Of a stretch of 64,000 nt of DNA, positions 3,409 through 51,401 are shown in pieces. Where the stretch lies: IMG/VR virus record IMGVR_UViG_3300008017_000012. One strand, given 5' to 3'. Numbering within the stretch: position 1 is the stretch's first letter; every line of letters starts with the position of its first letter. The notes under the pieces are model-generated. The model searched no databases, was not told the origin of the DNA, and saw only the letters and a list, made by a program, of their open reading frames with translations. The translations under genes were made by a program, and so were the position numbers. The DNA is from a virus.

Positions 3409-3792
3409 GTGTTGATTAATATTTTTAAAAAAGGAGTATTAAAAATGCCTAATTTTAAATTTAAAATATATGAGAATAAAGAAGATTACTTAAAAATGAA
3501 AGAAAATTTTAAATCTTTATTATGTGAAAGAAAAAGCTTGACTCATTATCATTATATTTTGTATAATCTTTTAAGAAATAAAAATCCTAATATTGATATT
3601 ACAAAATTTAATGGGGATACTTATTATAAATTGAAAAATAAAGTTGAATTTATCATAAAATATAAAATGCTGTTTAACTTAAATTATCATTTTTTAAAAA
3701 TTTTTAATATATCAGATATAGATTTTATAGAAATTAATAATTATATTTATGAAACATACTTCAAAGGGAAAAAACCACATGAAAACATTTAA
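3409..3792 (+). CDS. Hypothetical protein (probable start 3445)
   Basis: ORF with an internal AGGAG RBS before MPNFKF. Confidence 0.6.
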   Translation: MLINIFKKGVLKMPNFKFKIYENKEDYLKMKENFKSLLCERKSLTHYHYILYNLLRNKNPNIDITKFNGDTYYKLKNKVEFIIKYKMLFNLNYHFLKIFNISDIDFIEINNYIYETYFKGKKPHENI

Positions 3793-3994
3793 AGAGTATA
3801 TTAAATTCGGAAAAATTGAAGGTTATCTATCAGAAGCAGCTTATGATTCAAATTTAGGTGCTGTTGAAATGATTGCATTCTTTCAAAAAGCATCTCCTGA
3901 TGAAATTGAAAAAATGGAAAAAATTGTTAAAAATGAAAATTGGGATGATTTTAAAAAATTAATTAAAAAAGTGCTAAATGTTCAATTACATTAA
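3779..3994 (+). CDS. Small protein with N-terminal MKTFKEYI tag; putative internal head protein
   Basis: Start MKTFKEYIK overlaps the previous gene; tag shared with many genes in the window. Confidence 0.6.
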   Translation: MKTFKEYIKFGKIEGYLSEAAYDSNLGAVEMIAFFQKASPDEIEKMEKIVKNENWDDFKKLIKKVLNVQLH

Positions 3995-9482: not shown

Positions 9483-9767
9483 ATGAGTACATTTGAAAAA
9501 TATCTTAAAGAAGCAAAAATGACTAAATCTGTTTTAAACAGAGCATTAATGGCAGTTGATGACACACAAGATCCAAATGCTTTAAAACATGAAGTTACAA
9601 ATTTTTATTCTGACCTCACAACTAAAACAGCTGAATTAAAAAAACTTTTTACCAAAGCTAAAAGTAAACCTAATCTTCCTGAAGTTCAGTTATTTATTGT
9701 AGCTTTTAGAAAACTTGAAGAAATTATTATGGGTAACACCAAAGATGATGTTGAGGAAGAAAATTAA
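9483..9767 (+). CDS. Putative internal head protein (MSTFEKYLKEA tag)
   Basis: AGGAG RBS; tag variant. Confidence 0.6.
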   Translation: MSTFEKYLKEAKMTKSVLNRALMAVDDTQDPNALKHEVTNFYSDLTTKTAELKKLFTKAKSKPNLPEVQLFIVAFRKLEEIIMGNTKDDVEEEN

Positions 9768-14876: not shown

Positions 14877-16226
14877 ATGAAAATAAAAGACGAAATTTTA
14901 GCAGAAAGTATGCATCAAAATTTTCTAAAAGAATCTGGAACATCTGAAGATATTGGAAAATATGCTCCTCTAATTCTTCCTCTTGTTCAAAAAATTTATC
15001 CTGAATCTCTTGTAAATCAAATTGCATCAGTACAACCAATTAAATCCCCAATTGGAAAAGTTGCTGCATTATATTCAATTTATACAGGGTCAGGGTCTAA
15101 TAACGATAATAATATTCATTTAGAAAATTCTAGAATTTTTACTGTTCCAGCATCAGCTGATGCTTCATTTACAATTGGATCAACTGGTGCTTCAGGGGGA
15201 AATAGTTTTACTGTTTTCTATAAAGAAAATGCAAAAGAATATACAGCTACTTATGCTCCTTCAGGTGGTAACTATTTGACTCGTGATTTTCCAGAGAAAT
15301 ATACTCATGTTCTTGTGAGAATTGATTCTGGTAATTTTGTAACTGGTGATACAATTGTTTCAGGTGATGGAGCAGGGGAAACTCTCCTTTATGTTTCTGC
15401 TAATAGAAATGTTATTAAAAGGGTATTCCATGATTACGCTCTTGTGTTAGAAAATAATTCCAATTTAAAAGAAATTAATTTTGAAATTAGAACTGCTACA
15501 CTTGAAACAAAATCAAGAAAAATTAAATCAAAATTTACATTAGAAAAATTACAAGAATTAAAATCTCTATATAATGAAAAAGCTGAAAAATTTGTTAGTG
15601 AATATATTGCTAATGAAATTCAACAAGAAATTGATCGTGAAGTTATTGATTATCTAAAAGATATAGCAACTCCTATGTACAATGATGTTAATCTAACTTA
15701 TTCTCAATCAACTGTTGGTGATAATTTACTCGGGCAAACTTATGATATTTATGTAAGTATTTTTATGGCAATTGAAGAAATTGTTAGAGCAACAAAAAGA
15801 AATAGAACAATGTTTATTCTTGCTGATAATGCTACCTGTTCTATGTTATTATTAAATCCATTACAATCAGAATCTCATCCTGATGAATCAAACCCTTATC
15901 GTGTTGGATCTGTTGGTGTATATCCACTGTATTGTGACCCTTACGCAACAGAACATTATGTTCTAGTTGGTTATCGCTTTGAATCTAAAGCATCAGATGA
16001 TGCAGGATTGATTTTTTCACCATATACTTCAAGCATCATTGAAGCTGTAAACCCTGATACTTTCGGTAAAGATTTTATGTCTCTTAATAGATATGGTTAT
16101 ATTAGGCATCCTCAAGATCAAGGTAAAGGATCTGGGGATAGTGATTTCTTTAGATATTTCTCTGTAATTTATGGTACTGATGGCGCTTTAAGAAACTTAA
16201 CTGATCAAATTAGAAAAAATTATTAA
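14877..16226 (+). CDS. Major-capsid-fold paralogue (gp23/gp24-like, probable vertex protein)
   Basis: LPLVQKIYPESLVNQIASVQPIKSP...SRKIKSKFTLEKLQEL...EIQQEIDREVI...LIFSPY...NRYG gp23-family motifs. Confidence 0.75.
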   Translation: MKIKDEILAESMHQNFLKESGTSEDIGKYAPLILPLVQKIYPESLVNQIASVQPIKSPIGKVAALYSIYTGSGSNNDNNIHLENSRIFTVPASADASFTIGSTGASGGNSFTVFYKENAKEYTATYAPSGGNYLTRDFPEKYTHVLVRIDSGNFVTGDTIVSGDGAGETLLYVSANRNVIKRVFHDYALVLENNSNLKEINFEIRTATLETKSRKIKSKFTLEKLQELKSLYNEKAEKFVSEYIANEIQQEIDREVIDYLKDIATPMYNDVNLTYSQSTVGDNLLGQTYDIYVSIFMAIEEIVRATKRNRTMFILADNATCSMLLLNPLQSESHPDESNPYRVGSVGVYPLYCDPYATEHYVLVGYRFESKASDDAGLIFSPYTSSIIEAVNPDTFGKDFMSLNRYGYIRHPQDQGKGSGDSDFFRYFSVIYGTDGALRNLTDQIRKNY

Positions 16227-16457: not shown

Positions 16458-16542
16458 TTTTCATTTAAAAAATATTATAATTTAATTAAGAACTCTTATG
16501 ACTATAAATAGTTATAAGAGTTTTTTAATTAAGGAAATAAAT

Positions 16543-19353
16543 ATGTTAGAAGATTTAACAACAGATATAAATGGAAAAGAATTAGCTTTTAAAGGTGATT
16601 CCTCATTAAAACAATGTGGTGCAAAATTAGCATTTACAAAAGAACATACAGAAGAATTTCTAAAATGTTCTAGTGATTGGAAATATTTTATAGAAAAGTA
16701 TCATCATATTATCTCTCTTGATGATGGAATCACTAAAATAAAATTAAGACCATATCAATTAAAACTTATTGAAAATTATATAAGCCATAGATTTAATATA
16801 GTATTAGCTTCAAGACAATGTGGTAAAACAGAGTCTTATGTAGGCTTCATTCTGCATTATATATTATTTAATGAAAATAAATCCGTTGCAATTCTAGCAA
16901 ACAAATTAAAAACAACAAAAGGAATTTTACAAAAAGTCAAACAAAGTTATTCTCTATTACCTAAATTTATTCAACAAGGGGTAAAAACATGGAATAAAAC
17001 AGAAATTGTATTAGAAAATGGATGCAGTGTTTTTGCATCAGCCACCACTGGTTCATCTATTCGTTCTGGTAGTGCAAATATTGTAATAATTGACGAATGT
17101 GCATTTATACAGTCTAATACTTGGACAGATTTTTATGAATCTACCTATCCTACAATTTCATCATCAAAAGAATCAAAAGTAATAATGGTGTCATGTGTTA
17201 TTAAAGATACTTTTGTTTTTAGTGATAAAGGTTTAACTCAGATAAAAAATTTAATTAACCCAAACAAAAATAAAGGTTATGAGGTAGAAAAATATGTTAT
17301 AAGAGGTAAAGATAAATTAAGAACTGGTAATATTATGTATAATAATGGTTTAGCTAAAACTAAAATATTAAATACAAGTTTTGGTGAATTAGAATGTTCT
17401 TTATCTCATAAATTATGGTCTTGTGTTAATGGTATATATGGATGGCATAAAGCTGATGAGATAAAAGTAAATGATTTTATTTCTTTAGAATATAATATGA
17501 ATATTTTTGGTAATAATGATGTTATAAATTTTAATCCTCTCATATCTTCTAATAGAATTAAAAATACATTTAAATGTGAAAAAATAGATAAAGATATTGC
17601 TTATTTCTTAGGATTATTTATTTCTAAAGGATATTGTGAAAAAATATTTGCTAAAAATGGAAAATTAAAAGATTCTAAAATTGTTATAACTTCTGAGGAT
17701 TCTCTTGAAACAATTTTAAATAAATTAAATTTAACATTTTCATGTAGAGATGAAATTCATTATATTATTAATTCTACTCAATTAATGTTATTTTTTGAAT
17801 TTTTAGGATTTGATTTTAATAAAAAAGAAAATGAAAAATTAATCCCTGATAGATTATTACAAATGAGTAAAGAAAATATAATAGCTTTGTTACAAGGAAT
17901 ATTTGATGGTAATGGAGATTCTAAAATTGTCAATGGAACAGTAAGTTATACATCAGAATCAAAAACATTAGTTTATCAAGTCAAAATGTTATTATTAAAT
18001 TTAGGATTATTAACAGATATTAAAAAAAATATAACACTATCAAATGATAAAGTTCATTCAACTGATTATATTGCAAGCATGAATACATATTATTCAAAAA
18101 TTTATTATGATTTAATTGGATTTAGAATTGAAAGAAAACAAATTAAAAGAGATAATTTAAAAAAATCTAATGGATCTAAAGATTTATTTGATTTAATTCC
18201 TTATGCAAAAAAAATATTAAAATTAAAAAACCCTAAAGAAAACATAAAGTGGTTTAGTGTTAATGAAATTTCATATTCAGAAAATGAAGTTTATGATTTT
18301 TCATTACCAGATGATGATAAAGATGAATGGTGTCATTCTGTCTTATATAATGGTTATATAGGTCATCAAACACCAAATGGGATGAATCATTTCTATAAAT
18401 TTTGGGAAGATTCTATTAATAAAAAAAATGTTTATAAAAATACTAGAGTTGATTGGTGGGAAGTTCCTGGTAGAGATGAAAAATGGAAAGAAGAAACAAT
18501 AGCAAATACTTCAGTTGTTTCTTTTGCTCAAGAATTTGGTAATGATTTTTGTGGTAGTGTAGCAACACTTATTGATCCTTTAAAATTAAAAGAAGTTAAA
18601 TTTTCACCTTCATTAGAAGTTTCAAATATTCATAATAGAATATCAGAAGAATATCATCGTTTTATAAAAATTTATAAAGAACCAATTAAAGGGCATATTT
18701 ATTCAATAGGAGTAGATTCATGTAAAATGACAGAAGAAAATTCAGGTGATGCGCTTGGTATGCAAGTCATAGATATAACAAAATTTCCTTATGAACAAGT
18801 AGCAACGTTTTTTGCAAAAGAAGGGTTCAATTATTTATTTGCACCAGAAATTGCAGTATCATTAGGTAATTATTATAATAGTGCATATATGTTTGTTGAA
18901 AATAATGAAGTAGGTCAAGAAGTAGCTAATGCAATTCATTTTGATTATGAATATGAAAACATATATTTTGAAAAAGGTAATACAGCTGGTTATAGAACTA
19001 CAAAAAGAACAAAAAGATTAGGTTGTACTAATTTAAAATTATTAATAGAAAAAAATAAAATTATTTTAAATGATTTTGATACAATTTCTCAATTATCAAC
19101 TTTTATAAAAGTAAAAAATTCTTTTAAAGCAGAAAATAGTTATCAAGATGATTTAGTCATGGCATTAATCTCAGCAATATTTTTTATGATAAATAAAGAT
19201 TTAGATATAGGTGAATTAGAAGATACACAAACAATGTTATCTATTTTAAAAAATGAAAAAGAAGAAATTGAAGAAACCCCTACTTTTGGTGTTTTGCCAA
19301 GTGATGAATATGAAGAACATTCTCAAATTGATATAGATGGGTTCTCTTGGTAA
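16543..19353 (+). CDS. 17: Terminase large subunit (T4 gp17-like) containing an intein
   Basis: SRQCGKT Walker A, IIDECAF Walker B, STPNG split by the intein, DDLVMAL nuclease motif; start moved to the RBS-supported ATG 16543. Confidence 0.93.
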   Translation: MLEDLTTDINGKELAFKGDSSLKQCGAKLAFTKEHTEEFLKCSSDWKYFIEKYHHIISLDDGITKIKLRPYQLKLIENYISHRFNIVLASRQCGKTESYVGFILHYILFNENKSVAILANKLKTTKGILQKVKQSYSLLPKFIQQGVKTWNKTEIVLENGCSVFASATTGSSIRSGSANIVIIDECAFIQSNTWTDFYESTYPTISSSKESKVIMVSCVIKDTFVFSDKGLTQIKNLINPNKNKGYEVEKYVIRGKDKLRTGNIMYNNGLAKTKILNTSFGELECSLSHKLWSCVNGIYGWHKADEIKVNDFISLEYNMNIFGNNDVINFNPLISSNRIKNTFKCEKIDKDIAYFLGLFISKGYCEKIFAKNGKLKDSKIVITSEDSLETILNKLNLTFSCRDEIHYIINSTQLMLFFEFLGFDFNKKENEKLIPDRLLQMSKENIIALLQGIFDGNGDSKIVNGTVSYTSESKTLVYQVKMLLLNLGLLTDIKKNITLSNDKVHSTDYIASMNTYYSKIYYDLIGFRIERKQIKRDNLKKSNGSKDLFDLIPYAKKILKLKNPKENIKWFSVNEISYSENEVYDFSLPDDDKDEWCHSVLYNGYIGHQTPNGMNHFYKFWEDSINKKNVYKNTRVDWWEVPGRDEKWKEETIANTSVVSFAQEFGNDFCGSVATLIDPLKLKEVKFSPSLEVSNIHNRISEEYHRFIKIYKEPIKGHIYSIGVDSCKMTEENSGDALGMQVIDITKFPYEQVATFFAKEGFNYLFAPEIAVSLGNYYNSAYMFVENNEVGQEVANAIHFDYEYENIYFEKGNTAGYRTTKRTKRLGCTNLKLLIEKNKIILNDFDTISQLSTFIKVKNSFKAENSYQDDLVMALISAIFFMINKDLDIGELEDTQTMLSILKNEKEEIEETPTFGVLPSDEYEEHSQIDIDGFSW
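17194..18369 (+). mobile_element. Intein (392 aa) in gp17, Cys start, His-Gln end, +1 Thr, degenerate LAGLIDADG domain
   Basis: MVS|CVIKDTFV...YNGYIGHQ|TPNG; blocks YFLGLFISKG and LLQGIFDGNG. Confidence 0.9.
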
Positions 19354-23943: not shown

Positions 23944-23983
23944 AATGTTATTTATAAAAATAATTTTTAATATAAATAACATT
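23944..23983. promoter_or_regulatory. Back-to-back T4 late promoters forming an inverted repeat
   Basis: AATGTTATTTATA...TATAAATAACATT; TATAAATA on - (23949-23956) and + (23971-23978). Confidence 0.8.
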
Positions 23984-24018
23984 AAGATTCAATATAACAT
24001 AAAAAAGAGGAATTGTCA

Positions 24019-24234
24019 ATGAATAAAATTTATGATTACTGGAAAATGTTATCAAAAGATTCTAATAAATCATTAGATAAAGTTGAAACAGCATGGAGAC
24101 AAACTGTTGATGAACTTTCAAAAGAAGGAATAAAACCAACAGATAAAAAATATAATTCTGAACTCATTTTAAGAACTAAAAAGAAAGTTATGAAAGAAAG
24201 TAAACTTCAACAATATCTTAATGAACTTTTATGA
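24019..24234 (+). CDS. Small late hypothetical protein
   Basis: GAGG RBS; follows the late promoter. Confidence 0.65.
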   Translation: MNKIYDYWKMLSKDSNKSLDKVETAWRQTVDELSKEGIKPTDKKYNSELILRTKKKVMKESKLQQYLNELL

Positions 24235-24707
24235 AAACATTCAAACAATTTATTACAGAAAAAATATTTTATAGAGGATTATCAGATAAATATGATCCAT
24301 CTTATAAAACACATATTGAATGGTTTTCTGAAACAGAAGAATTAGCAAAAGATTATGCAGGCAATGAAGAAAATTCAACTATCATAACAAAAAATTTATC
24401 TAATAATATTATTGAAAGATCATTCCAACATGGGTTTAGAACAGCTTTTACTGAAATTAAAGCTTCTGACTTCATTTCTAGAATAAAAAATGGAATAAAT
24501 ATTGCCTTTAAAAATAAATGGATTTCTAGAGAAGAAGGAATAAAACTTTTTGATGAAATAGATAATTTAGATTTACCAAAAGGATTTAAACGAGTATTTG
24601 ATTGGTGGAATTCTTATCCACCTTTTATTAATATTTTAAAAAAAGCTGGATATAAAAGTATACATAATATAGAAAATAATATTAATACCTATGGAGTTTT
24701 TAAATGA
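24231..24707 (+). CDS. MKTFKQFITE-tagged protein with ADP-ribosyltransferase-like fold
   Basis: FYRG...WFS...LAKDYA pattern resembles the ART beta1/beta2 motifs. Confidence 0.6.
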   Translation: MKTFKQFITEKIFYRGLSDKYDPSYKTHIEWFSETEELAKDYAGNEENSTIITKNLSNNIIERSFQHGFRTAFTEIKASDFISRIKNGINIAFKNKWISREEGIKLFDEIDNLDLPKGFKRVFDWWNSYPPFINILKKAGYKSIHNIENNINTYGVFK

Positions 24708-25261
24708 TTTCTTTTAAACAGTTTATAAATGAAAGTAAAAAAATAATTGCTTATCATGGTTCAAAAGATGTAATTGATGATTTTAAATATGATTATACCA
24801 ACAAAGGAAATGATCAATTAGGTAGTGGTTTTTATTTTACAACAGATAAAAATGAAGCAAAAAGTTATGGTAAAAATGTTCATGAAGTAGAATTAACTTT
24901 AGATAATCCTATTGATGCTGAAAAAATAGGTAATCTTTCTATTCAACAAGCTAAAATGTTTATTAAAAATGCTCCTAATTATAATGAAGATCTTATGAAT
25001 TGGGGTGATGTTGATAGAGAAGGTGAAGAAAAAGTTTTAAAAACTGCATCAGAAGCTTATGCTTTCAAAAATAGAATTATTGTTAGAGCTTTGTTTAATT
25101 TAGCTAATGATTTCTATAGAGATGAAACTGAAGAATTTAATAAAAATGTTAAGAAAATTTTAGGATTTGATAGTTTATATAAAAAACATGAAAATGGTGC
25201 AATCCATTATGTTGCCTTTTTCCCCTCTCAAATAAAAATACTAAAGATTGTTCCTGAATGA
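24704..25261 (+). CDS. MISFKQFINE-tagged ADP-ribosyltransferase-like protein
   Basis: AYHGS...F...LGSGFYFTTDKNEAKSYG, typical of the ART domains of phage polyvalent proteins. Confidence 0.7.
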   Translation: MISFKQFINESKKIIAYHGSKDVIDDFKYDYTNKGNDQLGSGFYFTTDKNEAKSYGKNVHEVELTLDNPIDAEKIGNLSIQQAKMFIKNAPNYNEDLMNWGDVDREGEEKVLKTASEAYAFKNRIIVRALFNLANDFYRDETEEFNKNVKKILGFDSLYKKHENGAIHYVAFFPSQIKILKIVPE

Positions 25262-25331
25262 AATTCTTAATTAATTTATTATTAAAAAATAATGTTAACT
25301 AAATTCTATTTAATATGGAGAGATAACTTAG

Positions 25332-25691
25332 ATGAAAACATTTAAGCAATTTATATCAGAAGCTGAATATAATATAAATAAAAATGAATTAAAAGAGATA
25401 AATAAACATTTATATGATTTAGTGAAAAAAACAGATAGTTTTGAAACTACTAAAGATATGCTTGATTCAATTATACTTGCTTTAGAAGATTATGATTTAG
25501 TAATTTTATCAAAAGATAATAAAACTTTTTCTGGTAAATTATTAGTAAATAAAGGAAGTAAAGAATTTTCTTTATCTAATGTGAATAATGTTGAACAAGG
25601 AAGATTTATTCCATTTGAAAATTTAAAACTAACTGTTAATTGGTCAATTACTGAAGATGGAATAAATCTTAAAGATGTTTTTATTGGGTAA
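25332..25691 (+). CDS. MKTFKQFISE-tagged hypothetical protein
   Basis: Tag; GGAG RBS. Confidence 0.65.
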   Translation: MKTFKQFISEAEYNINKNELKEINKHLYDLVKKTDSFETTKDMLDSIILALEDYDLVILSKDNKTFSGKLLVNKGSKEFSLSNVNNVEQGRFIPFENLKLTVNWSITEDGINLKDVFIG

Positions 25692-25753
25692 TATAGATAT
25701 TCAAAGGGGTACCGGATAAGCCTCATTATATCATCTAGAACCGGATCTGTCAA
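25692..25753 (-). promoter_or_regulatory. Perfect-consensus sigma70 promoter, antisense to late genes (copy A)
   Basis: TTGACA (25753-25748), 17 nt, TATAAT (25730-25725); near-identical to 35012..35072. Confidence 0.8.
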
Positions 25754-25788
25754 GCTTTTTTATTTTTGAACTCTAATAAAGGTACCAA

Positions 25789-26616
25789 ATGAAAACTTTT
25801 AAACAATTTATTTTAGAAAAAACTTTTAATGTTGATGAAGATGTAGATTTTCTTTATAAAAAATCTAAAATGGATAAGTTCATAAATGCTATTCAGGAAT
25901 CTAATGAAGATTATATTTTTTCTACTTTAAAAGCTAATTTTATTAGTGGTGATGGTGGATATTTGTTTTTAGAAACCACATCAAAAATTTTGAGATCTGA
26001 AGATGGAATGAAAGCTCATGAATTAAATCCAGTTACATTACGTTTAGGGATGTTTCCTAATGGAAGTTATTATAAACCTAAAGAAAAAATAATTTATATG
26101 TCTTTAAACTATAATGCATTTGGTTTAGCATCGAATTCTAATTTCAATAAGAAAAGTATAGAAAAATATCTTGACCACAAATCAGAAAGATTTTTTAATG
26201 AATTTTCTTCAAAATCATTCAAAGCAACTATTTACCATGAATTAACTCATTGGATTGATGATACTTTACATAATAAATTTATCACTAAAAAAATAGAAAA
26301 AGCTAAAGATGGAGATTTGAAAGGAAAATTAGGAAGTGTTAATCATGCTAATTTTGAAATAAATTCTCAGATACACGCAATTAAACAGATAAAAAGAGAA
26401 ATGAGTCAAGAAGATTTTGATGATTTGACTTGGGAAAATCTATTTAAGAAAAAATCATCTTTGATGAGTAATTTCAAAAATTTTAAAGATGAGAAAACCT
26501 ATAATATTTTCATAAATAACTTTGTGAAAAGATTACACAAAGAAGGACTTTTACCAAAAAAAATGAATAGAATTCCATCTTGGTTAAAAATGCAAATAAT
26601 TTTAAAAAGCATCTAG
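25789..26616 (+). CDS. MKTFKQFILE-tagged protein with HExxH zincin motif
   Basis: IYHELTHWIDD and a downstream EINS glutamate. Confidence 0.65.
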   Translation: MKTFKQFILEKTFNVDEDVDFLYKKSKMDKFINAIQESNEDYIFSTLKANFISGDGGYLFLETTSKILRSEDGMKAHELNPVTLRLGMFPNGSYYKPKEKIIYMSLNYNAFGLASNSNFNKKSIEKYLDHKSERFFNEFSSKSFKATIYHELTHWIDDTLHNKFITKKIEKAKDGDLKGKLGSVNHANFEINSQIHAIKQIKREMSQEDFDDLTWENLFKKKSSLMSNFKNFKDEKTYNIFINNFVKRLHKEGLLPKKMNRIPSWLKMQIILKSI

Positions 26617-26623
26617 GAATAAA

Positions 26624-27151
26624 ATGAAAACATTCAAACAGTTTATAACAGAAGCTAATCTTTATTTTAATGTATTTGTAGAGAAAACTTTAAAGAATAA
26701 TACAATTGATATCTCACAGGCTAATGAATTTCTTACCCCTGAATATCAATATAGTGGAGTAATCTATAAAGTTCTTTTTGTTAATAAAGAAGAAGTATTA
26801 AAATATTATAATCCAGAAGAAGGAATACAAGATGCAAAAGGATTAGCTAGTGTTATTGTTAAAAAGTTTAATCCAAATAGATATGTATTTTATTCTAAAT
26901 CTTTAACAGGTTTAGATAATCTTATAAAATATCCTAATCTTTTTAAAATATCTGATGATCAAATTGGTGTTATATATTCTAAAAAAACTAATATAGCAAT
27001 TGATTTAACAAAATATGAAGGCAAAGATCCATCTATTAAAAAACGTTTATCACAAACTCAAGAAGTATTAGATTTTGAAGATATTAAAATAAATAAAATT
27101 GATGCTGTTTACCTATTAACTAATTCCGGTTGGGTATTAAAAACTTTATGA
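26624..27151 (+). CDS. MKTFKQFITE-tagged hypothetical protein
   Basis: Tag; possible ART-like fold (YSG.IYKVL...FYSKS...QEVL), weak. Confidence 0.6.
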   Translation: MKTFKQFITEANLYFNVFVEKTLKNNTIDISQANEFLTPEYQYSGVIYKVLFVNKEEVLKYYNPEEGIQDAKGLASVIVKKFNPNRYVFYSKSLTGLDNLIKYPNLFKISDDQIGVIYSKKTNIAIDLTKYEGKDPSIKKRLSQTQEVLDFEDIKINKIDAVYLLTNSGWVLKTL

Positions 27152-27768
27152 AATCTTTTAAATCCTTTATAAATGAAGAAAAAAATAGTTCTTATACTAA
27201 AGAAATGAAAGAATGGTTTCTACAAAGAACTAAAAATCACATTCAGAACGTCCAGGACTTCGCTGGTCTTGTTGAAAAAGAATTTCCAGTATATGCTAAG
27301 GGGTTAATAAAAAATACTCTTAAACACGATAAAAATAAATTTGAAGAACCTTCATTAACACCATATATACATATTACATGGAAATATAAAATGAAAGATG
27401 AAGGTAAAGAATATGAAATTCCTGAAACAATAAATGATTATGAAGCAACAGAATATCATGTAAAAACAAATGATCATCATCCTGAATATTGGACTGATCA
27501 AACTGAAACTATAAATAAAAATGATAGAGATAAACTTTCTAAACTCATAGATGGAACAAAAATGAGTAATAGAGTTATTTCAGAAATGTGTTCCGATTGG
27601 ATGGCAATGAGTTTTGAAAAAGGTGGAGATCCAAGAGATTGGGCTAAATCTAATATTAATGTTCGTTGGAAATTTTCAAAAGACCAAGAAAAAATGATTT
27701 ACAAAATTTTAAATAAAATATGGGAAATAAAGGAGAATAATCATGAGTATAAAATTAACAGATTTTAA
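27148..27768 (+). CDS. MKSFKSFINE-tagged HD-like metal-dependent hydrolase (DUF5662-like)
   Basis: H...KHDKNK...H...NDHHPEYW...EMCSDWMA His/Asp cluster. Confidence 0.65.
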   Translation: MKSFKSFINEEKNSSYTKEMKEWFLQRTKNHIQNVQDFAGLVEKEFPVYAKGLIKNTLKHDKNKFEEPSLTPYIHITWKYKMKDEGKEYEIPETINDYEATEYHVKTNDHHPEYWTDQTETINKNDRDKLSKLIDGTKMSNRVISEMCSDWMAMSFEKGGDPRDWAKSNINVRWKFSKDQEKMIYKILNKIWEIKENNHEYKINRF

Positions 27769-29813: not shown

Positions 29814-29844
29814 ATACATATAAATATATTTAGGTGATTATATA

Positions 29845-30210
29845 ATGATAAGATTTAAAGAATTTATAACTGAAAATAAACATTATTCTGATATTGAAGA
29901 ATTTAAAAAATATTGGAAAAATAAAGGTGTTGATAATTCAATAACTGAAACAAAAAATATTATTAAACCAAATATTATTAAAATTGATAAAGAAAATAGA
30001 AATAAAGGTTTAGGAACAGATTTTATGAAAGATTTAATTTCTTATGCAGATAAAAAAGAAAAAATATTAACTCTTTCACCAACAATAAATTTTGGTGCAA
30101 CAAGTAAAAAAAGATTAATTAATTTTTTTAAAAGATTTGATTTTGTTGAAAATAAAGGGCGTAATATAAATTATCAGTTTTCTGACTCTATGTATAGAGA
30201 ACCTAAATAG
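29845..30210 (+). CDS. MIRFKEFITE-tagged GNAT acetyltransferase-like protein
   Basis: IKIDKENRNKGLGTDFM acetyl-CoA motif A and LINFFKRFDF; late promoter at 29819-29826. Confidence 0.75.
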   Translation: MIRFKEFITENKHYSDIEEFKKYWKNKGVDNSITETKNIIKPNIIKIDKENRNKGLGTDFMKDLISYADKKEKILTLSPTINFGATSKKRLINFFKRFDFVENKGRNINYQFSDSMYREPK

Positions 30211-34528: not shown

Positions 34529-35011
34529 ATGTTATCTCAAGAAATATTAGAAGCTCTTAATGATCAAGCACAACATGAAAAAACAAATTCTTATATATAT
34601 AGGAATTTTGCAGGTATTGCTGATTATCAATCACTATTAGGAACAACAAAATGGTTTATGAAACAAAGTAAAGAAGAAGCAAGCCATTTTGACCTTGTTG
34701 TTAATTATATTCAAAACCAAGGTCATATACCAAAATTATTATCTATCCCTGAACAAGATAATACAAATATTACTCTTTATGATATGTTTGTTAGAAGTTT
34801 AGCAACTGAAATAGAAACTCTTGAAAAACTCAAAAAAATATGTTCACTTTGTAAATTAGAAAATGATGATCAAACTTATAAATTAATACTTGATATGGTA
34901 TATGAACAAATTGAAGAAGTGAAAACAGTTAGTGATATTTTAAATAGAATTAAACAAGCAGGTACTGGTTTAGGATTTATTATTATTGATCAAGAATTGG
35001 CTAATAGATAA
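34529..35011 (+). CDS. ftn: Non-haem ferritin
   Basis: LNDQ..HE...Y...WF.KQS.EE..H...YEQIEE ferroxidase-centre pattern. Confidence 0.85.
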   Translation: MLSQEILEALNDQAQHEKTNSYIYRNFAGIADYQSLLGTTKWFMKQSKEEASHFDLVVNYIQNQGHIPKLLSIPEQDNTNITLYDMFVRSLATEIETLEKLKKICSLCKLENDDQTYKLILDMVYEQIEEVKTVSDILNRIKQAGTGLGFIIIDQELANR

Positions 35012-35884: not shown

Positions 35885-37834
35885 ATGGCAATTGGCGATT
35901 TAACAGTTGTTGGATCTAATCTAACAGGGATTTCATGTTCAGGAAATTATCATGGTGAATTTACTGGGGATCTTGTAAAACCAGTAAAAAATGAGCAAGT
36001 TCTTCTTGCTGATCTTAAAAATATTATAGGTAATCCAGGTGATACTGTATATATGACAGGAAGAACCTCACCAGGTGATGGAGATGATGGTACTTTCTAC
36101 TGGGATTCTAGTGACTTATCAGCTAAAGTAGCAACTGATACTCTTAGTGATATATATGTTGCTCCGAATATAGATTTGACCGGGGCAAGCGGAGGGTGGG
36201 TGCGGCAGCTCATTAGTGCCACTCAAGCCGAAATGGAAGCAGGCACCGAAACCGCGCTTCGTTCTATGTCGCCACTACTGGTTCGGCAGGCAATAGATGC
36301 TCAGATGCCAAACAATATTATTGGTGCACCTGGGGAAGCAGGTTTTGGTGTTGGCATTGCCCCTGCCTCAGCTGTCCCAGAAGGAATGACGTATCTTGGG
36401 ACGTCATTCCTTCTGGGAGATAATTACGGCAATTACCAGTTTTCTGATGGTTCCATCATGTGCTACGTACCGAAGTTTTACTACCGCATAGCTCATGTCA
36501 GTAATCCAACCTATGCAACCTACGGGGTTAACTCGTGTGATGTTAAAGGGGTCAACACCTTTGCAACTACCGCAGATGCCAACGCCGCAGGCTATGCGCT
36601 GCATCGTGCTTTTATTGACGGCGGTACCGAAAAAGATGGATTTTTTGTTGATAAATATATGTGTAGTAAAAACGCCCTTGGCAGTGGTTTTGTTGCCAGT
36701 TCCCTTCAAAACGGTCTGCCAATTTCAACCAACAATACCCATAACCCAATTGCCGCCCTGACCGCCTGCGCGGACAACTATAATTACGAAGCGATTAATG
36801 CTGCTCATGCCCGTGACGGTATAGATGGGGCAATTAATCCTGATTCGATTTTTTTCTGCAACTCTCGTCAAATTCATGGAGCACTGGCGCTGCTCTCCCT
36901 CGCTCACGGCCAAAAATCCTTAAATACCACAAACTGCGCCTGGTATGATGCTACCTACAATTTCCCCAAAGGTTGTAACAATAACGCCCTGGGGGATGCA
37001 AACGATGCCACTATCGCTTACACCAGTGATGGTTTTGACAACTGCGGGAAGACCGGCAGTGGTACCCCGTTTGCAAAAACCACACACAATGGCCAAGCGT
37101 GCGGCGTAGCTGATTTGAACGGTTTGATGTACGAGGTCAATATTGGTCTAACCTGTATCGCCACTACCAAAACAATAACCGCAATAACGCAAGCCAACCC
37201 CTGTCAGGTTACTGTTGTCGGTCACGGACTGACAACAGGAGACTACGTACTAATTGGTAGCCTTGCTGGCATGACGGAACTTAGAAATAAAATCTATAAG
37301 GTCACGGTTGTTGATGCGAATAACTTTACCTTGTATGGTGTTAACTCAACGGCCTTTTCTGCCTATATCGGCGGGGGTACTGCCATTATAGGTACATTTT
37401 ATCGGGCAGCTGATAGTACAGAGATGCGCAATTTTACCGCAGGCAACACACTGGCAACAGATCATTGGGGGGTCACAGGAGTCACCGCAATGATGACGCC
37501 GTTTGTTCCTGCGTTTGCGGCAACCTACCCTAGCAACAATTCTACTCAGCGTTTTGGTTCATCGGCGGAGCAGGTTATTGCCAGTAATGTTAGCGGAGAC
37601 GCCTGGGAAATGGCGGGGCTGGGATTTCCGCGGCAGACGGCAATCTCCCAAGTAGGCACAAATTTGTTTGGTGTAGATTATTACTATCAATATGTGCGTC
37701 ATGATCTGTGCCCGGCTTCGTCCCACTTTTGGCAAAATTTGACGCTGGCCGGGATCTGGTCGTTCGACTTTACCTCTTACCGGACGACTTCGAGCAACAT
37801 TTTCGGGTTCCGTACCGCCTGTTACCCTGCTTAA
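35885..37834 (+). CDS. Chimeric tail fibre / receptor-binding protein with C-type-lectin (FGE/Mtd-like) C-terminus
   Basis: AT-rich N-terminus with a GDGDDGTFYWD tailspike motif; GC-rich remainder with FFVDKY, GVADLNGLMYE and a terminal ...AGIW...GFR variable-region pattern; late promoter at 35847-35854. Confidence 0.75.
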   Translation: MAIGDLTVVGSNLTGISCSGNYHGEFTGDLVKPVKNEQVLLADLKNIIGNPGDTVYMTGRTSPGDGDDGTFYWDSSDLSAKVATDTLSDIYVAPNIDLTGASGGWVRQLISATQAEMEAGTETALRSMSPLLVRQAIDAQMPNNIIGAPGEAGFGVGIAPASAVPEGMTYLGTSFLLGDNYGNYQFSDGSIMCYVPKFYYRIAHVSNPTYATYGVNSCDVKGVNTFATTADANAAGYALHRAFIDGGTEKDGFFVDKYMCSKNALGSGFVASSLQNGLPISTNNTHNPIAALTACADNYNYEAINAAHARDGIDGAINPDSIFFCNSRQIHGALALLSLAHGQKSLNTTNCAWYDATYNFPKGCNNNALGDANDATIAYTSDGFDNCGKTGSGTPFAKTTHNGQACGVADLNGLMYEVNIGLTCIATTKTITAITQANPCQVTVVGHGLTTGDYVLIGSLAGMTELRNKIYKVTVVDANNFTLYGVNSTAFSAYIGGGTAIIGTFYRAADSTEMRNFTAGNTLATDHWGVTGVTAMMTPFVPAFAATYPSNNSTQRFGSSAEQVIASNVSGDAWEMAGLGFPRQTAISQVGTNLFGVDYYYQYVRHDLCPASSHFWQNLTLAGIWSFDFTSYRTTSSNIFGFRTACYPA

Positions 37835-37855
37835 GCAACAATAAGGAGTTTCACT

Positions 37856-38281
37856 ATGCAAATCTACAGCTATCAAAAAATATCCGATGATTACACCACC
37901 TACACCGCACAAGGCAGTGAAGAAAGTCCGGTGCAAGAGTTGTGTACAATTGACGGGACAACCTATTTTTACGGCCCAGACGAGCTGCCTCCGCAGCCTG
38001 AGAAGATTACAGTTGTGCCGGTAGTATTGACCGAGGAGTTACGTACTGCGATTAAAGCCGCTAGCCCAATGTGTCAATTGTCGTATCGCCGTACAAAAGC
38101 CCGCATCCGCGAGCGATACAGCCAAGAAGATGAAACATTTCTCGCCCGTATCGGCGTCGGCCAAGCTCTTGGGGTCTATCAAATGTCACCAGGAGAAATG
38201 CAAGAGCTGGCGGATTACCAAGCGTTTGTTGAAGAACAACGTGCCTGGGGTCGGGAACAACGGGAGCTGATAGGATTATGA
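37856..38281 (+). CDS. Hypothetical protein, possible fibre assembly/chaperone
   Basis: AAGGAG RBS; directly after the fibre gene in the island. Confidence 0.65.
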   Translation: MQIYSYQKISDDYTTYTAQGSEESPVQELCTIDGTTYFYGPDELPPQPEKITVVPVVLTEELRTAIKAASPMCQLSYRRTKARIRERYSQEDETFLARIGVGQALGVYQMSPGEMQELADYQAFVEEQRAWGREQRELIGL

Positions 38282-38397
38282 GCGACAAGTATAATCTGAT
38301 GAGATACTTAATAATAGCATTGATATTATTGTTGCCCTGTTCGGTCTCCGCCGACAATTACTATTATCTCTTTGGTGTAAAAGTCACGCTTTGGTAA
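38278..38397 (+). CDS. Small hydrophobic peptide, 39 aa
   Basis: MSDKYNLMRYLIIALILLLPCSVSADNYYY...; overlaps the upstream stop. Confidence 0.4.
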   Translation: MSDKYNLMRYLIIALILLLPCSVSADNYYYLFGVKVTLW

Positions 38398-38409
38398 AGG
38401 AGCCACACA

Positions 38410-38832
38410 ATGATCTTATATATTAGATTGGCCGGTATCACCCCGGAAACTTACACCGATGAATTAGCACGTACCGCCTTGCACAGTGCCGCGCTGGAGA
38501 TTCAAGGGCTGAATGCCGCAGTGCCGGGCCTTGCGTTTGACCCAATTAAATCAACCCCAGCGACATGGGATGAGGATGGTAACACAGACCTGCTCACCAG
38601 GCCGATTGAGACCTTTTTAGGCAACTGCAACACGCCGCCGAACGCATGGGGAGATGTAGGCGTACAGATTGACAATTACAACTGGCTGGAACTACCGCCG
38701 GGAATCGCGCCCAAAACGTTTTCTATTACCCTTGGTCGACCGATCCGTCAAACCGTTGACGCTGAGGGCAACCCGGTAACGGTGGAGGTTGGCATGATAG
38801 CCGGGGCGACGATTGAGCCGGAGACGTTATGA
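38410..38832 (+). CDS. Hypothetical protein
   Basis: AAGGAG RBS; island codon usage. Confidence 0.65.
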   Translation: MILYIRLAGITPETYTDELARTALHSAALEIQGLNAAVPGLAFDPIKSTPATWDEDGNTDLLTRPIETFLGNCNTPPNAWGDVGVQIDNYNWLELPPGIAPKTFSITLGRPIRQTVDAEGNPVTVEVGMIAGATIEPETL

Positions 38833-39044
38833 GTGACAAGTACAGCCAAAAATGGGTAACGCTCTTTTCCAAAGCGGATAAGTGGGCCATTACCTTAGGG
38901 CAGACAACCTATTACAGCTGCAACGAATTTGCAATCACACCAAGCTGGAGACGGCACGAAGAGGAGCATAAACGCCAGTGGCGTGAGCACGGTTGGCTCT
39001 TTGCGTTGAAATACTTGTGGGAGTTGCGCAAGGGGTTGAAGTAG
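38829..39044 (+). CDS. Small HExxH-like protein, possibly truncated at the island edge
   Basis: WRRHEEEHKRQW...KYLWE; ends exactly where GC content drops. Confidence 0.5.
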   Translation: MSDKYSQKWVTLFSKADKWAITLGQTTYYSCNEFAITPSWRRHEEEHKRQWREHGWLFALKYLWELRKGLK

Positions 39045-39057
39045 TTAAAAATATTTT

Positions 39058-39110
39058 TATAAATAAATATAAATAAGTATGAAAAGCTATGAAATAAATT
39101 TTTATAAATA
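39058..39110 (+). promoter_or_regulatory. Three TATAAATA late-promoter boxes
   Basis: At 39058-65, 39068-75 and 39103-10, followed by an AGGAG RBS. Confidence 0.7.
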
Positions 39111-39129
39111 CTATTAGGAGAAACAAAAA

Positions 39130-39288
39130 ATGAAAGTAGTTAGAGTGACAAATGAAGAGTTTGAATTAGAAGATGGGTCTATTCATCCTATCTTGTTTGA
39201 ACTTGATTATACTCCTACCGTAGAAGAATTTCAACTTATATACGATGAATCAGTAAAACAACTGGAATCTATACTACATGACAAATGA
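39130..39288 (+). CDS. 52-aa acidic ORF coupled to IS607 tnpA
   Basis: MKVVRVTNEEFELEDGSIHPILFELDYTPTVEEFQLIYDE...; its stop overlaps the tnpA start region. Confidence 0.7.
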   Translation: MKVVRVTNEEFELEDGSIHPILFELDYTPTVEEFQLIYDESVKQLESILHDK

Positions 39289-39901
39289 AAAATTATATAC
39301 ATTATCTGATGTAGCCAAATTATTAAATGTTCATCAAGACACTTTAAGACTATGGGATAAATCTGGTAAATTGGTTTCTATAAGAACTAAAGGTGGGCAC
39401 AGACGATATAAAGAATCTGTTGTTCATGAAATGATGAATATTATCAAAGAGCCAGAAGTTATATCCAATGTAATTTGTATTTACTGTAGAGTATCATCAA
39501 ATGAACAGAAAACCAAAGGTGATTTAGAAAGACAGAAGCAACGTCTATATGAATACTGTATACAAAAGAAATACATAGTTGAATACATTTTTGAAGAAGT
39601 TGGTAGTGGGTTGAATGATAAAAGACCTAAACTACTCAAGATGATGGATTTAGCTAAAGAAAGAAAACTAACTAAAATAGTTATAGAGCATAAAGATAGA
39701 TTGATTAGATTTAATAAAAATATACTAATCAAGTATTTTGAAAGTCATGGTGTTACCGTAGAATGGAGTCAAGAAACATTAGAACTGTCATACCAAAATG
39801 AACTAGTAGAAGATATGCTTTCACTTATAGCCTCATTCAGTTCTAAACTTTATGGTAAACGTAGTGCTGAAAATAGAAAAATTAAAAAAAGAGAACTCTG
39901 A
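39278..39901 (+). CDS. tnpA: IS607-family serine recombinase TnpA
   Basis: N-terminal MerR-like HTH (TLRLWD..GKL..IRT.GGHRRY); YCRVSS, EVGSGLN.KR, EHKDRL.RF, ELVEDML. Confidence 0.95.
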   Translation: MTNEKLYTLSDVAKLLNVHQDTLRLWDKSGKLVSIRTKGGHRRYKESVVHEMMNIIKEPEVISNVICIYCRVSSNEQKTKGDLERQKQRLYEYCIQKKYIVEYIFEEVGSGLNDKRPKLLKMMDLAKERKLTKIVIEHKDRLIRFNKNILIKYFESHGVTVEWSQETLELSYQNELVEDMLSLIASFSSKLYGKRSAENRKIKKREL

Positions 39902-40058
39902 TGAATAAAAATACTCCACTAATAACACCGACTTTTAAAAAGAGTTATCCTATAATAGATATAGAACCTAAAATTATGACAGATTGGGAATTTACTATTC
40001 GTAAGCTAAAACTATTAACATTGTGTTGTAGAGGTGAAGATGGATGGTGTAGATTAAA

Positions 40059-41273
40059 ATGATTAGAACAACAGAACATTCATTAAAATATATTACTGAC
40101 TACAAGAAACAAAAACTTGATATTTTGTTTGATGAATATCAACGTGTAGTCAACCAATATATTAATGTGTTCTGGAATCAAACATCATGGAAATCTAAAG
40201 CAACAGCAGATGAATATAAATTAGTAGATTCTTGGCTTATGGGTAAAGTGATGAAGTGTGCTTATGCTCAAGCTATACAAATGATTCGTTCAACCAAAGA
40301 TAAACAAAAGAAATTAGTTTACAAACAATACAAAAGAGTTTATAGTAAAGCTAAACGTAAGAATAAAAATTGGGATATAGTAAATCAAACCTTTACGGTT
40401 TGGAGCAAAGATAAAACTTTCAGAGATAGAACTAAAATTCCTTTCTTCTCTGGAGATTCTATAGAACTCAATTCTGACTTATGTAAGATATATCAAGATG
40501 TCTCTATATCTCATTTTGATATGGTTGTTAGATTGGGTTCGATATGGGGAAATAGGCTTTCATTAGAGTTACCAATAAGAAAGCACAAACATTTCAATCA
40601 ACTGTTTGCATCTGGTTTTGGTGTAAAAACGTCTTTGAGATTGAGTAGAAAGAACAACAAATATAGCATCAATCTCTATATGTCAAAAGACTTTGAACAA
40701 GTAAAAGATGAAGGGAATATTATAGGGATTGACGTTGGCATTAAAAAACTTATGTCGGTTAGTGATGGTACTTTTATTGGAACTGATATAGAATCAATTA
40801 TTAGAAAGTATAAAAGAAGAAAGCAAAATAGCAAAAACAGTAAGAAAACATTAAAGCAAATAAAAGACTATATCGGGCATTCTGTTAATCAACTCAACTT
40901 TACTGATACACAATGTATTGTTATGGAAGAGTTAAAGCCAAGTAATATGTTAGTCAAAGGTAAATCTAGTAAAGAGTTTAGAAAAATATTAAGTAAATGG
41001 AATCAAAACTTGTTAGTGGAAAGAATACAAAATAAATGTGAGCTTAACCGTGTTGAGCTTCAGTTTGTTTTACCACATCATACAAGTCAGCAGTGTTCTC
41101 AATGTGGAGAAATCCATAAAGAGTCAAGAAAAGGCGAACTATATCAATGTGTTGGTTGTGGTTATACGATAGATGCAGACTACAATGCTTCATTGAATAT
41201 AGTTAATAAATTCTTGAATAAGGAATTTACCGTTCCTTCTAATACAAAAACTACCATTCCTAGATTTTCATAG
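40059..41273 (+). CDS. tnpB: TnpB RNA-guided RuvC nuclease
   Basis: GIDVG (D), VMEEL (E), TSQQCSQCG...CVGCG zinc finger, DADYNAS (D); all three acidic residues present. Confidence 0.93.
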   Translation: MIRTTEHSLKYITDYKKQKLDILFDEYQRVVNQYINVFWNQTSWKSKATADEYKLVDSWLMGKVMKCAYAQAIQMIRSTKDKQKKLVYKQYKRVYSKAKRKNKNWDIVNQTFTVWSKDKTFRDRTKIPFFSGDSIELNSDLCKIYQDVSISHFDMVVRLGSIWGNRLSLELPIRKHKHFNQLFASGFGVKTSLRLSRKNNKYSINLYMSKDFEQVKDEGNIIGIDVGIKKLMSVSDGTFIGTDIESIIRKYKRRKQNSKNSKKTLKQIKDYIGHSVNQLNFTDTQCIVMEELKPSNMLVKGKSSKEFRKILSKWNQNLLVERIQNKCELNRVELQFVLPHHTSQQCSQCGEIHKESRKGELYQCVGCGYTIDADYNASLNIVNKFLNKEFTVPSNTKTTIPRFS

Positions 41274-49960: not shown

Positions 49961-50650
49961 TTATTCAACTTCAATAATTTCAAAATTCTTTAAATGATAA
50001 AATTTATTTTCACATAAAATAACTTCAACAGTACAATTTTCAAAAACTAAATTTTTTATATTATAACCATATTGTTTTTCTTCAGCCAAGAGTTCATTTT
50101 TACAATGTTCAGTCATTAAGTAATCAATATACTTAATAAACTTAGATGAATAATCATCATAATATGATTCAAGGATTATTTTTTTTGTTTTACCAGAATC
50201 ATTTTTTTGAATATCTTGTTTGCCGTGGGGTAGCATGGTAATAATAACAAATTGATTACCTTTTACTTCTCCTGATTTATCTGGTCGATAATCAATAGCA
50301 ATAGCTTGATTCAAACTTTTTGAGTAAAAAAGATATTCCCCTGGTGAAATATCTTGTTCAAGAGAACTATCAATAATATTAGAAAAGAATTTTTTTAATT
50401 GTGTAGCAGATAGTTTATTTCTTTCTTCAAATCGTTCATAACCATGTGTTGTTGTAATAAACCATTTCCCTTTATATTCAAAAATATAATTAAGGGATTT
50501 ACCTCCTAATTGTTTCCATATAGGTGTATTAATAACTTTTAATCTCGGTTTATTATATACTTCTGGTTCTTTTTTTGTTTGAACACGTTCAGCAGAACGC
50601 ATTAAAGATGCTAAACTTGCTTCTTTAATAAATTCTTTAAATGTTTTCAT
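49961..50650 (-). CDS. MKTFKEFIKEA-tagged hypothetical protein
   Basis: Tag; internal TTHGYERFEER. Confidence 0.65.
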   Translation of the reverse strand: MKTFKEFIKEASLASLMRSAERVQTKKEPEVYNKPRLKVINTPIWKQLGGKSLNYIFEYKGKWFITTTHGYERFEERNKLSATQLKKFFSNIIDSSLEQDISPGEYLFYSKSLNQAIAIDYRPDKSGEVKGNQFVIITMLPHGKQDIQKNDSGKTKKIILESYYDDYSSKFIKYIDYLMTEHCKNELLAEEKQYGYNIKNLVFENCTVEVILCENKFYHLKNFEIIEVE

Positions 50651-50652
50651 TC

Positions 50653-50961
50653 TTACTTACCTTTACTAAAAGAATAGGAATCCACAGTATTTCTTGCATT
50701 ATGATCAATTTTTTTATTTTGAGATTCCCCATCAGCTTTTACTTCAATATCAATTTCTGCATCATAATTGAACTTTTTATTAAGTTCTTTTTCCCAAGCT
50801 TTAGCAGCATTGAATGCTGAATCTCCATCTGTAAGTCCTAGTTTTTTCTGTACAACTTTTCTTTGTTTCTCATAATCAATTGTAGCAATTAAAACATAAT
50901 CACGGATTCCTTCTTTTTTGTTTATTTTAACTTCTGCTAAAATTTCTTTAAAAGATTTCAT
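50653..50961 (-). CDS. MKSFKEILAE-tagged hypothetical protein
   Basis: Tag variant. Confidence 0.6.
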   Translation of the reverse strand: MKSFKEILAEVKINKKEGIRDYVLIATIDYEKQRKVVQKKLGLTDGDSAFNAAKAWEKELNKKFNYDAEIDIEVKADGESQNKKIDHNARNTVDSYSFSKGK

Positions 50962-51314: not shown

Positions 51315-51401
51315 ATATAAACCTTTTATTATAGTTTATATTTATTTATATAAAAAAATATTTATAAAAATAGTTTATTTGAGGGGAGATAATTTCTAAG
51401 A

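Follow-up and report, generated by a model that had tools for sequence, protein, structure and literature searches.

The DNA analysed here, referred to as the window, is a stretch of 64,000 nucleotides from the IMG/VR virus record IMGVR_UViG_3300008017_000012. It derives from an uncultured phage, and for this phage the analysis covers the 64-kb window. The window belongs to a T4-like myophage and is AT-rich (about 26% GC), with a GC content of 23 to 32% except in an island at 36 to 42 kb, where it reaches up to 48%. The subject of the analysis is a set of genes whose products begin with a similar decapeptide, here called the tag, followed by a protein body, here called the cargo. Six consecutive open reading frames (ORFs) on the plus strand, between positions 24231 and 27768, each begin with a tag decapeptide. 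Further tags were found on ORFs 29845 and 9483 and on three consecutive genes on the minus strand (49961 to 51314). In total, 12 ORFs of the window are tagged, 11 as full fits and one, ORF 3779, as a long variant like that of the T4 internal protein IPI. The tagged ORFs and the leader ORF of the array are as follows (aa, amino acids).

24019 to 24234, plus strand: untagged leader ORF of the tagged operon, 71 aa; the family search gave no match
24231 to 24707, plus strand: tagged cargo 1, MKTFKQFITE, 158 aa; probably an ADP-ribosyltransferase (ART) fold, from Atlas and the predicted structure
24704 to 25261, plus strand: tagged cargo 2, MISFKQFINE, 185 aa; ART-PolyVal domain (Pfam PF18760)
25332 to 25691, plus strand: tagged cargo 3, MKTFKQFISE, 119 aa; no family match
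25789 to 26616, plus strand: tagged cargo 4, MKTFKQFILE, 275 aa; HExxH-motif protein of an undescribed family
26624 to 27151, plus strand: tagged cargo 5, MKTFKQFITE, 175 aa; no assigned function
27148 to 27768, plus strand: tagged cargo 6, MKSFKSFINE, 206 aa; DUF5662 (PF18907, E 5e-22), HD-superfamily hydrolase-like
29845 to 30210, plus strand: tagged cargo 7, MIRFKEFITE, 121 aa; weakly GNAT-like, located between gp2 and the portal gene
49961 to 50650, minus strand: tagged cargo 8, MKTFKEFIKE, 229 aa; no assigned function
50653 to 50961, minus strand: tagged cargo 9, MKSFKEILAE, 102 aa; no assigned function
50958 to 51314, minus strand: tagged cargo 10, MLSFKQFLTE, 118 aa; short ART-PolyVal-like protein, below the PF18760 cut-off
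9483 to 9767, plus strand: tagged ORF with a weaker tag, MSTFEKYLKE, 94 aa; no assigned family
3779 to 3994, plus strand: ORF with a possible long IPI-type tag, MKTFKEYIKF, 71 aa; the start codon is uncertain

Three of the junctions in the array are ATGA overlaps of stop and start codons. The sixth array gene starts with the ATG at 27148 and not with the TTG at 27130. An earlier reading of the letters of this DNA (the sequence-only reading) had quoted the six decapeptides of the array, and these were confirmed exactly, both in coordinates and in sequence. It had also placed the same tag at 3779, 9483, 29845, 49961, 50653 and 50958. All six are present, but ORF 3779 lacks a Glu at position 10 (Glu10). 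Its N terminus instead has a YLSE sequence, followed by Ala, that ends at residue 19, which is the length and layout of the 19-residue propeptide of T4 IPI.

The occurrence of the tag was compared with chance by using the loose pattern M-x-x-[FY]-x-x-[FYIL]-[ILVM]-x-E. This pattern occurred at a rate of 0.0007 per internal position, which corresponds to about 0.06 expected matches at the approximately 90 ORF starts, and 11 were observed (Poisson P of about 1e-21). At internal Met residues, the loose pattern was not found (0 of 321). When position 10 was left free, 11 of the 13 N-terminal matches had Glu at this position. The consensus in the window is MKTFKQFIxE, with F4, F/Y/I7 and I/L8 in all 12 tags, E10 in 11 of 12 and no Asp at position 10; the conservation at positions 4, 7, 8 and 10 is partly forced by the collecting pattern. 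The positions outside the pattern are conserved as well, namely, K2 (8/12), T/S3 (11/12), K5 (11/12) and Q/E6 (10/12).

The codons of the tag vary synonymously (TTC/TTT, CAA/CAG, ATT/ATA and ACA/ACT), and the DNA 5' of the tagged genes is mutually unrelated, indicating that selection acts on the peptide and not on the DNA. The cargo bodies, described as unrelated in the sequence-only reading, showed no pairwise similarity in BLASTP, except that 24704 and 50958 are related (E 1e-4). The tag is thus a selected peptide placed before unrelated proteins. A DNA-level repeat or recombination cassette was ruled out, as the tag codons vary and conservation does not extend to the flanks. A signal peptide or membrane anchor was likewise ruled out, as the tag is charged and amphipathic.

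The tag closely resembles the capsid-targeting sequence (CTS) of phage T4. In the T4 record NC_000866, ipII and ipIII start with MKTYQEFIAE and ipI starts with MKTFKEF. The MKTYQEFIAE decapeptide is the CTS, which is cleaved off, and any protein fused to the CTS stays in the head (PMC8442874). The window consensus has 6 to 7 of 10 residues in common with the ipII/ipIII peptide. Mutagenesis of the T4 CTS assigned residues 4 and 7 to targeting and residues 8 and 10 to processing, and Asp at position 10 blocks cleavage (PMC9026906). The conserved positions of the window tags, F4, F/Y/I7, I/L8 and E10, are those which this mutagenesis found necessary. An aromatic residue at position 4, an aromatic or hydrophobic residue at position 7, I/L at position 8 and Glu at position 10 were all found in 11 ORFs, with one ORF as the long variant. 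The tag of 49961 is identical to T4 IPI over the first seven of seven residues and to T4 gp61.1 over all 10. The T4 gene 61.1 (NC_000866, 18966 to 19130, minus strand) encodes a hypothetical protein of 54 aa and is located in an early-gene cluster, upstream of the primase gene 61.

With two strict DNA patterns, 10 matches were found in the 64 kb of the window, or 15.6 per 100 kb. The T4 genome has three matches in 169 kb (ipII, ipIII and gene 61.1), or 1.8 per 100 kb. The genomes of KVP40, HTVC008M, S-T4 and CJLB-7, of 124 to 245 kb, have one to two matches each (0.7 to 1.1 per 100 kb). The tag density in the window is therefore about eightfold that in T4. The cyanophage S-T4 (NC_048049) has the tag-like sequences MKSFQQFLSE and MKNFLAFITE at 138027 to 138056 and 100015 to 100044, respectively, both on the minus strand, and an annotated cytidyltransferase follows the second after 60 nt in the same frame. 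These sequences hint that the CTS may reach cyanophages at a low copy number.

T4-type late-promoter motifs are located upstream of the main tagged clusters.

23971 to 23978, plus strand: TATAAATA motif before the first array gene, at a distance of 48 nt
29819 to 29826, plus strand: TATAAATA motif before tagged gene 29845, at a distance of 26 nt
51343 to 51366, minus strand: two TATAAATA motifs before the tagged cluster of three minus-strand genes, at distances of 36 and 52 nt

At a like spacing (26 to 48 nt), TATAAATA also precedes the gp15, gp24-like and tube-like genes. No clear late-promoter motif was found near ORFs 3779 and 9483. From their positions, the tagged clusters may be expressed late.

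The cargos were searched against families and structures. For the protein encoded by 24704, the PF18760 score was 48.9 bits (cut-off, 31.2; E 1.5e-12), which places it in the ART-PolyVal family. It also aligns weakly over the full AcrIF11 profile (PF26151/NF052490), far under the cut-off (NCBIfam E 0.002; 19 versus 50 bits). PADLOC gave only weak candidate-family matches for this protein. The 50958 protein scored 21 bits with PF18760 (E 6e-4), which is under the cut-off. The 24231 protein had no Pfam match, and hhalign gave a 20% probability to its alignment with the 24704 group, which was partly driven by the tag. Its Atlas language-model features scored 0.94, with 185 features shared, and its predicted structure lies near the ART-PolyVal and AcrIF11 clusters (TM 0.5 to 0.58); the ART assignment of 24231 is a lead from Atlas only. 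The catalytic signature of the ART-PolyVal clade is an H-Y-acidic triad. In a comparison from a shallow alignment, a YHG motif and an aromatic-rich second motif are kept in 24704, 50958 and the homologue in relative G001, and 24231 has YRG. The sequence-only reading had called two of the array proteins and 50958 ART-like; this is borne out for 24704 by Pfam, while 24231 and 50958 remain below the family cut-offs. The cargo set appears to hold at least one ADP-ribosyltransferase of the ART-PolyVal/AcrIF11 kind and probably three. AcrIF11 is, by its family name, an anti-CRISPR ADP-ribosyltransferase, and we know of no report of AcrIF11 packaged in virions.

The 27148 protein belongs to DUF5662. 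Among 37 sequences of this family, the residues H31, H60, D61, H104, H110, H111 and D150 are invariant, and the H...HD...D metal-binding signature of the HD superfamily was found. The AlphaFold2 model had a pLDDT of 91.9. The top 10 and most of the top 21 VIA neighbours of this model are HD domains, the exceptions being GlyRS chains. The best VIA match is the c-di-AMP phosphodiesterase PgpH (Z 9.2, 151 aligned residues, root mean square deviation 3.9), and HD-GYP c-di-GMP phosphodiesterases match at Z 6.4 to 8.9. The VIA Z values are moderate for a helical protein, and the Foldseek match is weak (E 0.37). The HD assignment, which agrees with the HD-like hydrolase call of the sequence-only reading, is sound with respect to both the motif and the predicted fold. 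A substrate among the cyclic dinucleotides would be a guess from the model comparisons. About one-third of the closer DUF5662 homologues carry the tag or a near-variant, and the others begin at the domain. In 40 more distant DUF5662 genes, the tag was not found (0/40), and the contigs of these genes hold no T4-like core gene.

The 25789 protein has an HExxH motif. In an alignment of 19 family members, H150, E151, H154, D158, E190 and the tag residue E10 are invariant. In the AlphaFold2 model (pLDDT 84.5), the tag forms a low-confidence helix of residues 4 to 10 before the fold. The fold searches gave a best Foldseek E value of 0.76 and, in the wide VIA search, a best Z of 5.3 with an unrelated protein, and no peptidase fold was found. 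The earlier peptidase-like call therefore stands for the invariant motif but not for the fold, and the Foldseek comparison of payloads that had been suggested as a check yielded no convincing fold here and the weak match mentioned above for 27148.

Glu10 is also kept in two fusion proteins of the HExxH family with a preceding domain, as an L-x-E junction in a low-confidence linker. One of these (P0019) consists of an N-terminal GNAT domain and the HExxH domain, and the other (P0017) consists of another domain of about 170 aa and the HExxH domain; both are joined via L-x-E. These two proteins look like small "polyvalent" versions of two separate cargos of the window. Glu10 is placed in a low-confidence segment before the folded domain, which is more in keeping with a processing site than with a structural residue. 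The homologue of the leader ORF 24019 in G001 (163554 to 163769) directly adjoins the homologue of the HExxH cargo. There may be a functional link between the leader ORF and the HExxH gene, such as a role as partner, inhibitor or chaperone.

The 29845 protein had a best Pfam GNAT score of 18.6 bits, below the cut-off of 27, and matched phrog_10691 (E 6e-24). A loop resembling the R-x-x-G-x-G acetyl-coenzyme A loop aligns with the GNAT part of P0019 (pairwise E 0.001), and the protein is short for a GNAT. The GNAT call of the sequence-only reading thus holds as a weak likeness but stays below the Pfam cut-off. A library of 1.8 billion representatives gave ten full-length homologues of the 26624 protein, and these are tagged as well. 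Sequence searches of the PDB with five cargos gave nothing meaningful. Each cargo of the window is one small domain behind its own tag. Six of the 12 cargos were without a function assignment, and only about six of the 12 show enzyme-like features; the earlier count of about a dozen enzymes was too high.

The tagged array is located in a late gene module. The module starts with gp13, gp14, gp15, a small terminase candidate, a capsid protein of the gp23/gp24 family and the large terminase gp17. This is followed by the sheath gene gp18, one minus-strand ORF and the tagged array, and then by the tube gene gp19, a second tube-like gene, gp4, gp2, the tagged gene 29845 and the portal gene gp20. The portal is about 33 to 35% identical to the portals of the nearest cultured phages. 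DNA similarity to known phages was limited to patches of about 200 bp with 66 to 70% identity in the portal and gp4 genes. Exact 40- to 49-nt pieces of the window matched nothing in the viral and metagenome contig collections, and with proteins a metagenome scan gave only relatives at 45% identity or lower. In cluster listings, proteins of the window are placed on contigs of about 157 to 158 kb.

A search with the portal gave ten IMG/VR loci at 55 to 66% identity, three of which are on complete genomes of 205 to 216 kb; the portals of these three complete relatives are 55 to 61% identical to that of the window. A Peptidase_S77 gene (gp21, PF03420), over the Pfam cut-off, is located downstream of the portal gene in all three. 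Their gp21 proteins begin with an LIEE-type motif, as does T4 gp21 (PMC9026906). The three genomes (GC, 30 to 46%) have nine, three and three tagged ORFs. The gene order is conserved among the relatives, and the interval between gp18 and gp19 ranges from 1.8 to about 23 kb, with tags there in two relatives. As its size varies and tagged genes recur in it, this interval seems to act as a variable cargo locus.

At an aligned N-terminal site, L-x-E followed by S, V or A is present in the gp24-like proteins of both the relatives and the window. The gene of the window is as follows.

14877 to 16226, plus strand: gp23/gp24-family capsid protein (Pfam Gp23, E 8.6e-49) with N-terminal ILAE-S and FLKE-S motifs

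From these motifs, this capsid protein is a likely substrate of the same protease as the tags. Its gene sits between the small and large terminase genes, a position kept in two of the three complete relatives. In relative G003, the gp23/gp24-family gene is located elsewhere. The true major capsid gene adjoins gp21 in the relatives.

The decapeptide is probably a tag of the T4 type that targets a modular set of proteins to the capsid, for packaging in the head, and is then cleaved off; we hold this with fair confidence. The sequence-only reading had proposed the same, and the proposal gained support from the near-identical N termini of ipI, ipII and ipIII, the match with the positions found by mutagenesis, the presence and absence of the tag within one payload family, the late-promoter motifs, and the gp21-type protease in all three complete relatives. 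The tagged proteins would be made late in infection. Through the aromatic residue at position 4 and the aromatic or hydrophobic residue at position 7, the tag would dock the cargo onto the scaffolding core during prohead formation, and a gp21-type prohead protease would cut after the I/L-x-Glu of residues 8 to 10. The mature cargo would be freed inside the head and would leave with the DNA at infection. It would most likely target host proteins or signalling molecules ahead of any phage gene expression, either in counter-defence or in host takeover. Packaging, cleavage at the Glu, ejection and the function of the cargos are what we infer from the computational analysis, and injection and a counter-defence role are less certain than the CTS reading.

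Several observations weigh against this interpretation. No genes for gp21, gp22 or gp23 were found in the 64-kb window (gp21 by tblastn). Since gp23, which is obligatory for any such phage, is also not in the window, the head-core genes are expected to be outside these 64 kb; as there is no gp21 in the window, the protease of this phage is assumed from the relatives. Most of the cargos are not strongly basic (mature pI, 5.0 to 9.7), unlike T4 IPII and IPIII, and several of the cargo family calls are under the curated cut-offs. About 22 copies of TATAAATA are expected per strand by composition, so the promoter evidence is one of position and not of count. T4 gp61.1 starts with MKTFKEFIKE and has no function annotated in the T4 record. 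Because it bears the identical decapeptide, the peptide alone is no proof of packaging; gp61.1 is either an unrecognised internal protein or a sign that the peptide occurs on unpackaged proteins. For this uncultured phage, the CTS reading is drawn from sequence comparisons.

Other explanations of the shared peptide were considered. It could be an uncleaved docking tag for the capsid exterior, tail, baseplate or a nonvirion complex, in line with the location of the array among the tail genes, from gp18 to gp19, and with the finding of no protease in the window. The tag, however, agrees with the T4 head signal at nearly every residue, among them the Glu that is required for cleavage only. Moreover, the cargos are small, soluble, enzyme-like domains and not fibres or adhesins, and Glu10 is retained at the inter-domain junctions of the fusion proteins. 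An uncleaved docking tag is therefore considered unlikely. Still less probable is a role of the peptide in tuning translation initiation, mRNA stability or turnover (as a degron) of co-regulated genes, with no relation to the virion. The A/T-rich codons at the extreme ORF starts, the occurrence of the same decapeptide on gp61.1 in the T4 early-gene cluster, and ORFs 3779 and 9483 without a clear late-promoter motif would agree with such a role. The synonymous codon variation and the tags at 46% GC, in contrast, indicate selection on amino acids; the aromatic, Ile/Leu and Glu positions match an experimentally shown packaging signal; and homologues outside T4-like contexts lack the tag.

The tandem layout with its overlapping stop and start codons and the detectable relation between 24704 and 50958 could also suggest that the genes are tandem-duplicated, diverged paralogues in which the N terminus is the last conserved region. 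The bodies, however, differ in fold and family (ART, helical HD fold and HExxH family), no similarity was detected among the other pairs by BLASTP, and the same payload family is found with and without the tag. This explanation was rejected because the cargo folds differ, and we give it almost no credence.

Diverse proteins that counter defences are injected by T4 as internal proteins, which have only the CTS in common, and the CTS has been suggested as a general loading route for varied proteins in T4-like phages (PMC3012670, PMC9026906). IPI* blocks GmrSD, and IPIII is required to infect ECOR17 (T4 literature, PMC3012670 among the sources). Internal proteins are not mentioned in the T4-family comparative genome papers PMC1524935 and PMC2993671. 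The tagged genes of the window resemble those of the T4 internal proteins in that an N-terminal peptide of about 10 residues, almost the same in sequence and with identical critical positions (4, 7, 8 and 10), precedes unrelated proteins that look non-essential and are encoded in variable parts of a T4-like genome. They differ in that the phage is very distant, with no overall DNA similarity and a much higher tag density; in that several cargos are enzyme-like, whereas the T4 proteins are small and basic; and in the placement of the array between the sheath and tube genes. The CTS principle is known from T4; the cargo set is new, and the window departs from T4 in its evolutionary distance, in how many genes are tagged and in having enzyme-like cargo.

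T4 Alt is an ART that is loaded into the head via a cleaved N-terminal propeptide, is processed by gp21 and acts on host proteins upon injection (PMC5512222, PMC9026906), and the ART-like cargos of the window would resemble it in these respects. Alt is of the R-S-E Alt/VIP2 clade, with a propeptide of 7 residues, whereas the putative ARTs of the window match ART-PolyVal (H-Y-type) and, weakly, AcrIF11, have the IP-type 10-residue tag and are 118 to 185 aa long. In the giant phages phiKZ and SPN3US, a gp21-related protease cuts many head-internal proteins behind a short motif with Glu as its last residue, and these proteins are ejected (PMC5694885, PMC7411985). Their propeptides are longer and mutually different, in contrast to the one decapeptide shared at the extreme N terminus in the window.

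The cargo set also resembles the polyvalent proteins of phages and conjugative elements (Iyer et al. 2017, PMC5512222), with which it shares ART-PolyVal, acetyltransferase-like and metallopeptidase-motif domains and the predicted entry with the DNA and early action. The homologue P0019, with GNAT and HExxH domains fused at an L-x-E junction, is of this kind. The window proteins differ in being encoded by separate small tagged genes and not as parts of a single giant polypeptide. Only the distant homologues P0017 and P0019 are fusions, and no cargo of the window combines the two or more disparate effector domains which define a polyvalent protein. Delivery would also differ, using the T4 scaffold and protease and not a MuF or portal-associated fusion. 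A more far-reaching and rather doubtful possibility is that this clade turned the CTS into a plug-in delivery of many single-domain enzymes of the polyvalent repertoire, some of them pre-loaded for counter-defence. In such a case, before the first phage transcription, the HD-fold DUF5662 protein might degrade immune signals made of cyclic nucleotides, and host proteins of immunity or transcription might be targets of ADP-ribosylation by the ART-PolyVal/AcrIF11-like enzymes.

Some further features of the window are apart from the tagged genes. The large terminase gp17 (16498 to 19353, plus strand) has 951 aa, and its T4-type N- and C-terminal terminase domains are about 500 residues apart. The stretch between the domains contains a LAGLIDADG_3 domain (residues 461 to 524) and probably represents an intein or a homing endonuclease inserted in frame. 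Downstream of the portal gene, the late region also encodes a ferritin-like protein (34529 to 35011, plus strand; Pfam Ferritin, E 3e-23), which has homologues in two of the three relatives. The GC-rich island (35885 to 41273, plus strand; up to 48% GC) starts within a gene for a 649-aa fibre-like protein and ends with an IS607-type pair, consisting of a serine recombinase with a MerR helix-turn-helix (39278 to 39901) and a TnpB/Cas12f-like TNB protein (40059 to 41273). The late module stops at this island, and minus-strand genes follow thereafter.

If the tag works as in T4, the head-carried and probably injected proteins of uncultured phages could be listed from sequence. This would give a shortlist of first-minute effectors, including the HExxH family, DUF5662 and the small ART-PolyVal enzymes, and would lend independent support to the 2017 prediction that polyvalent-protein domains enter with the DNA. 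The signal is almost unchanged even though the portal is only about one-third identical to those of cultured phages, which suggests that tag, scaffold core and protease have interacted for a very long time and under tight constraint. The CTS delivery handle may therefore transfer across the whole T4 superfamily.

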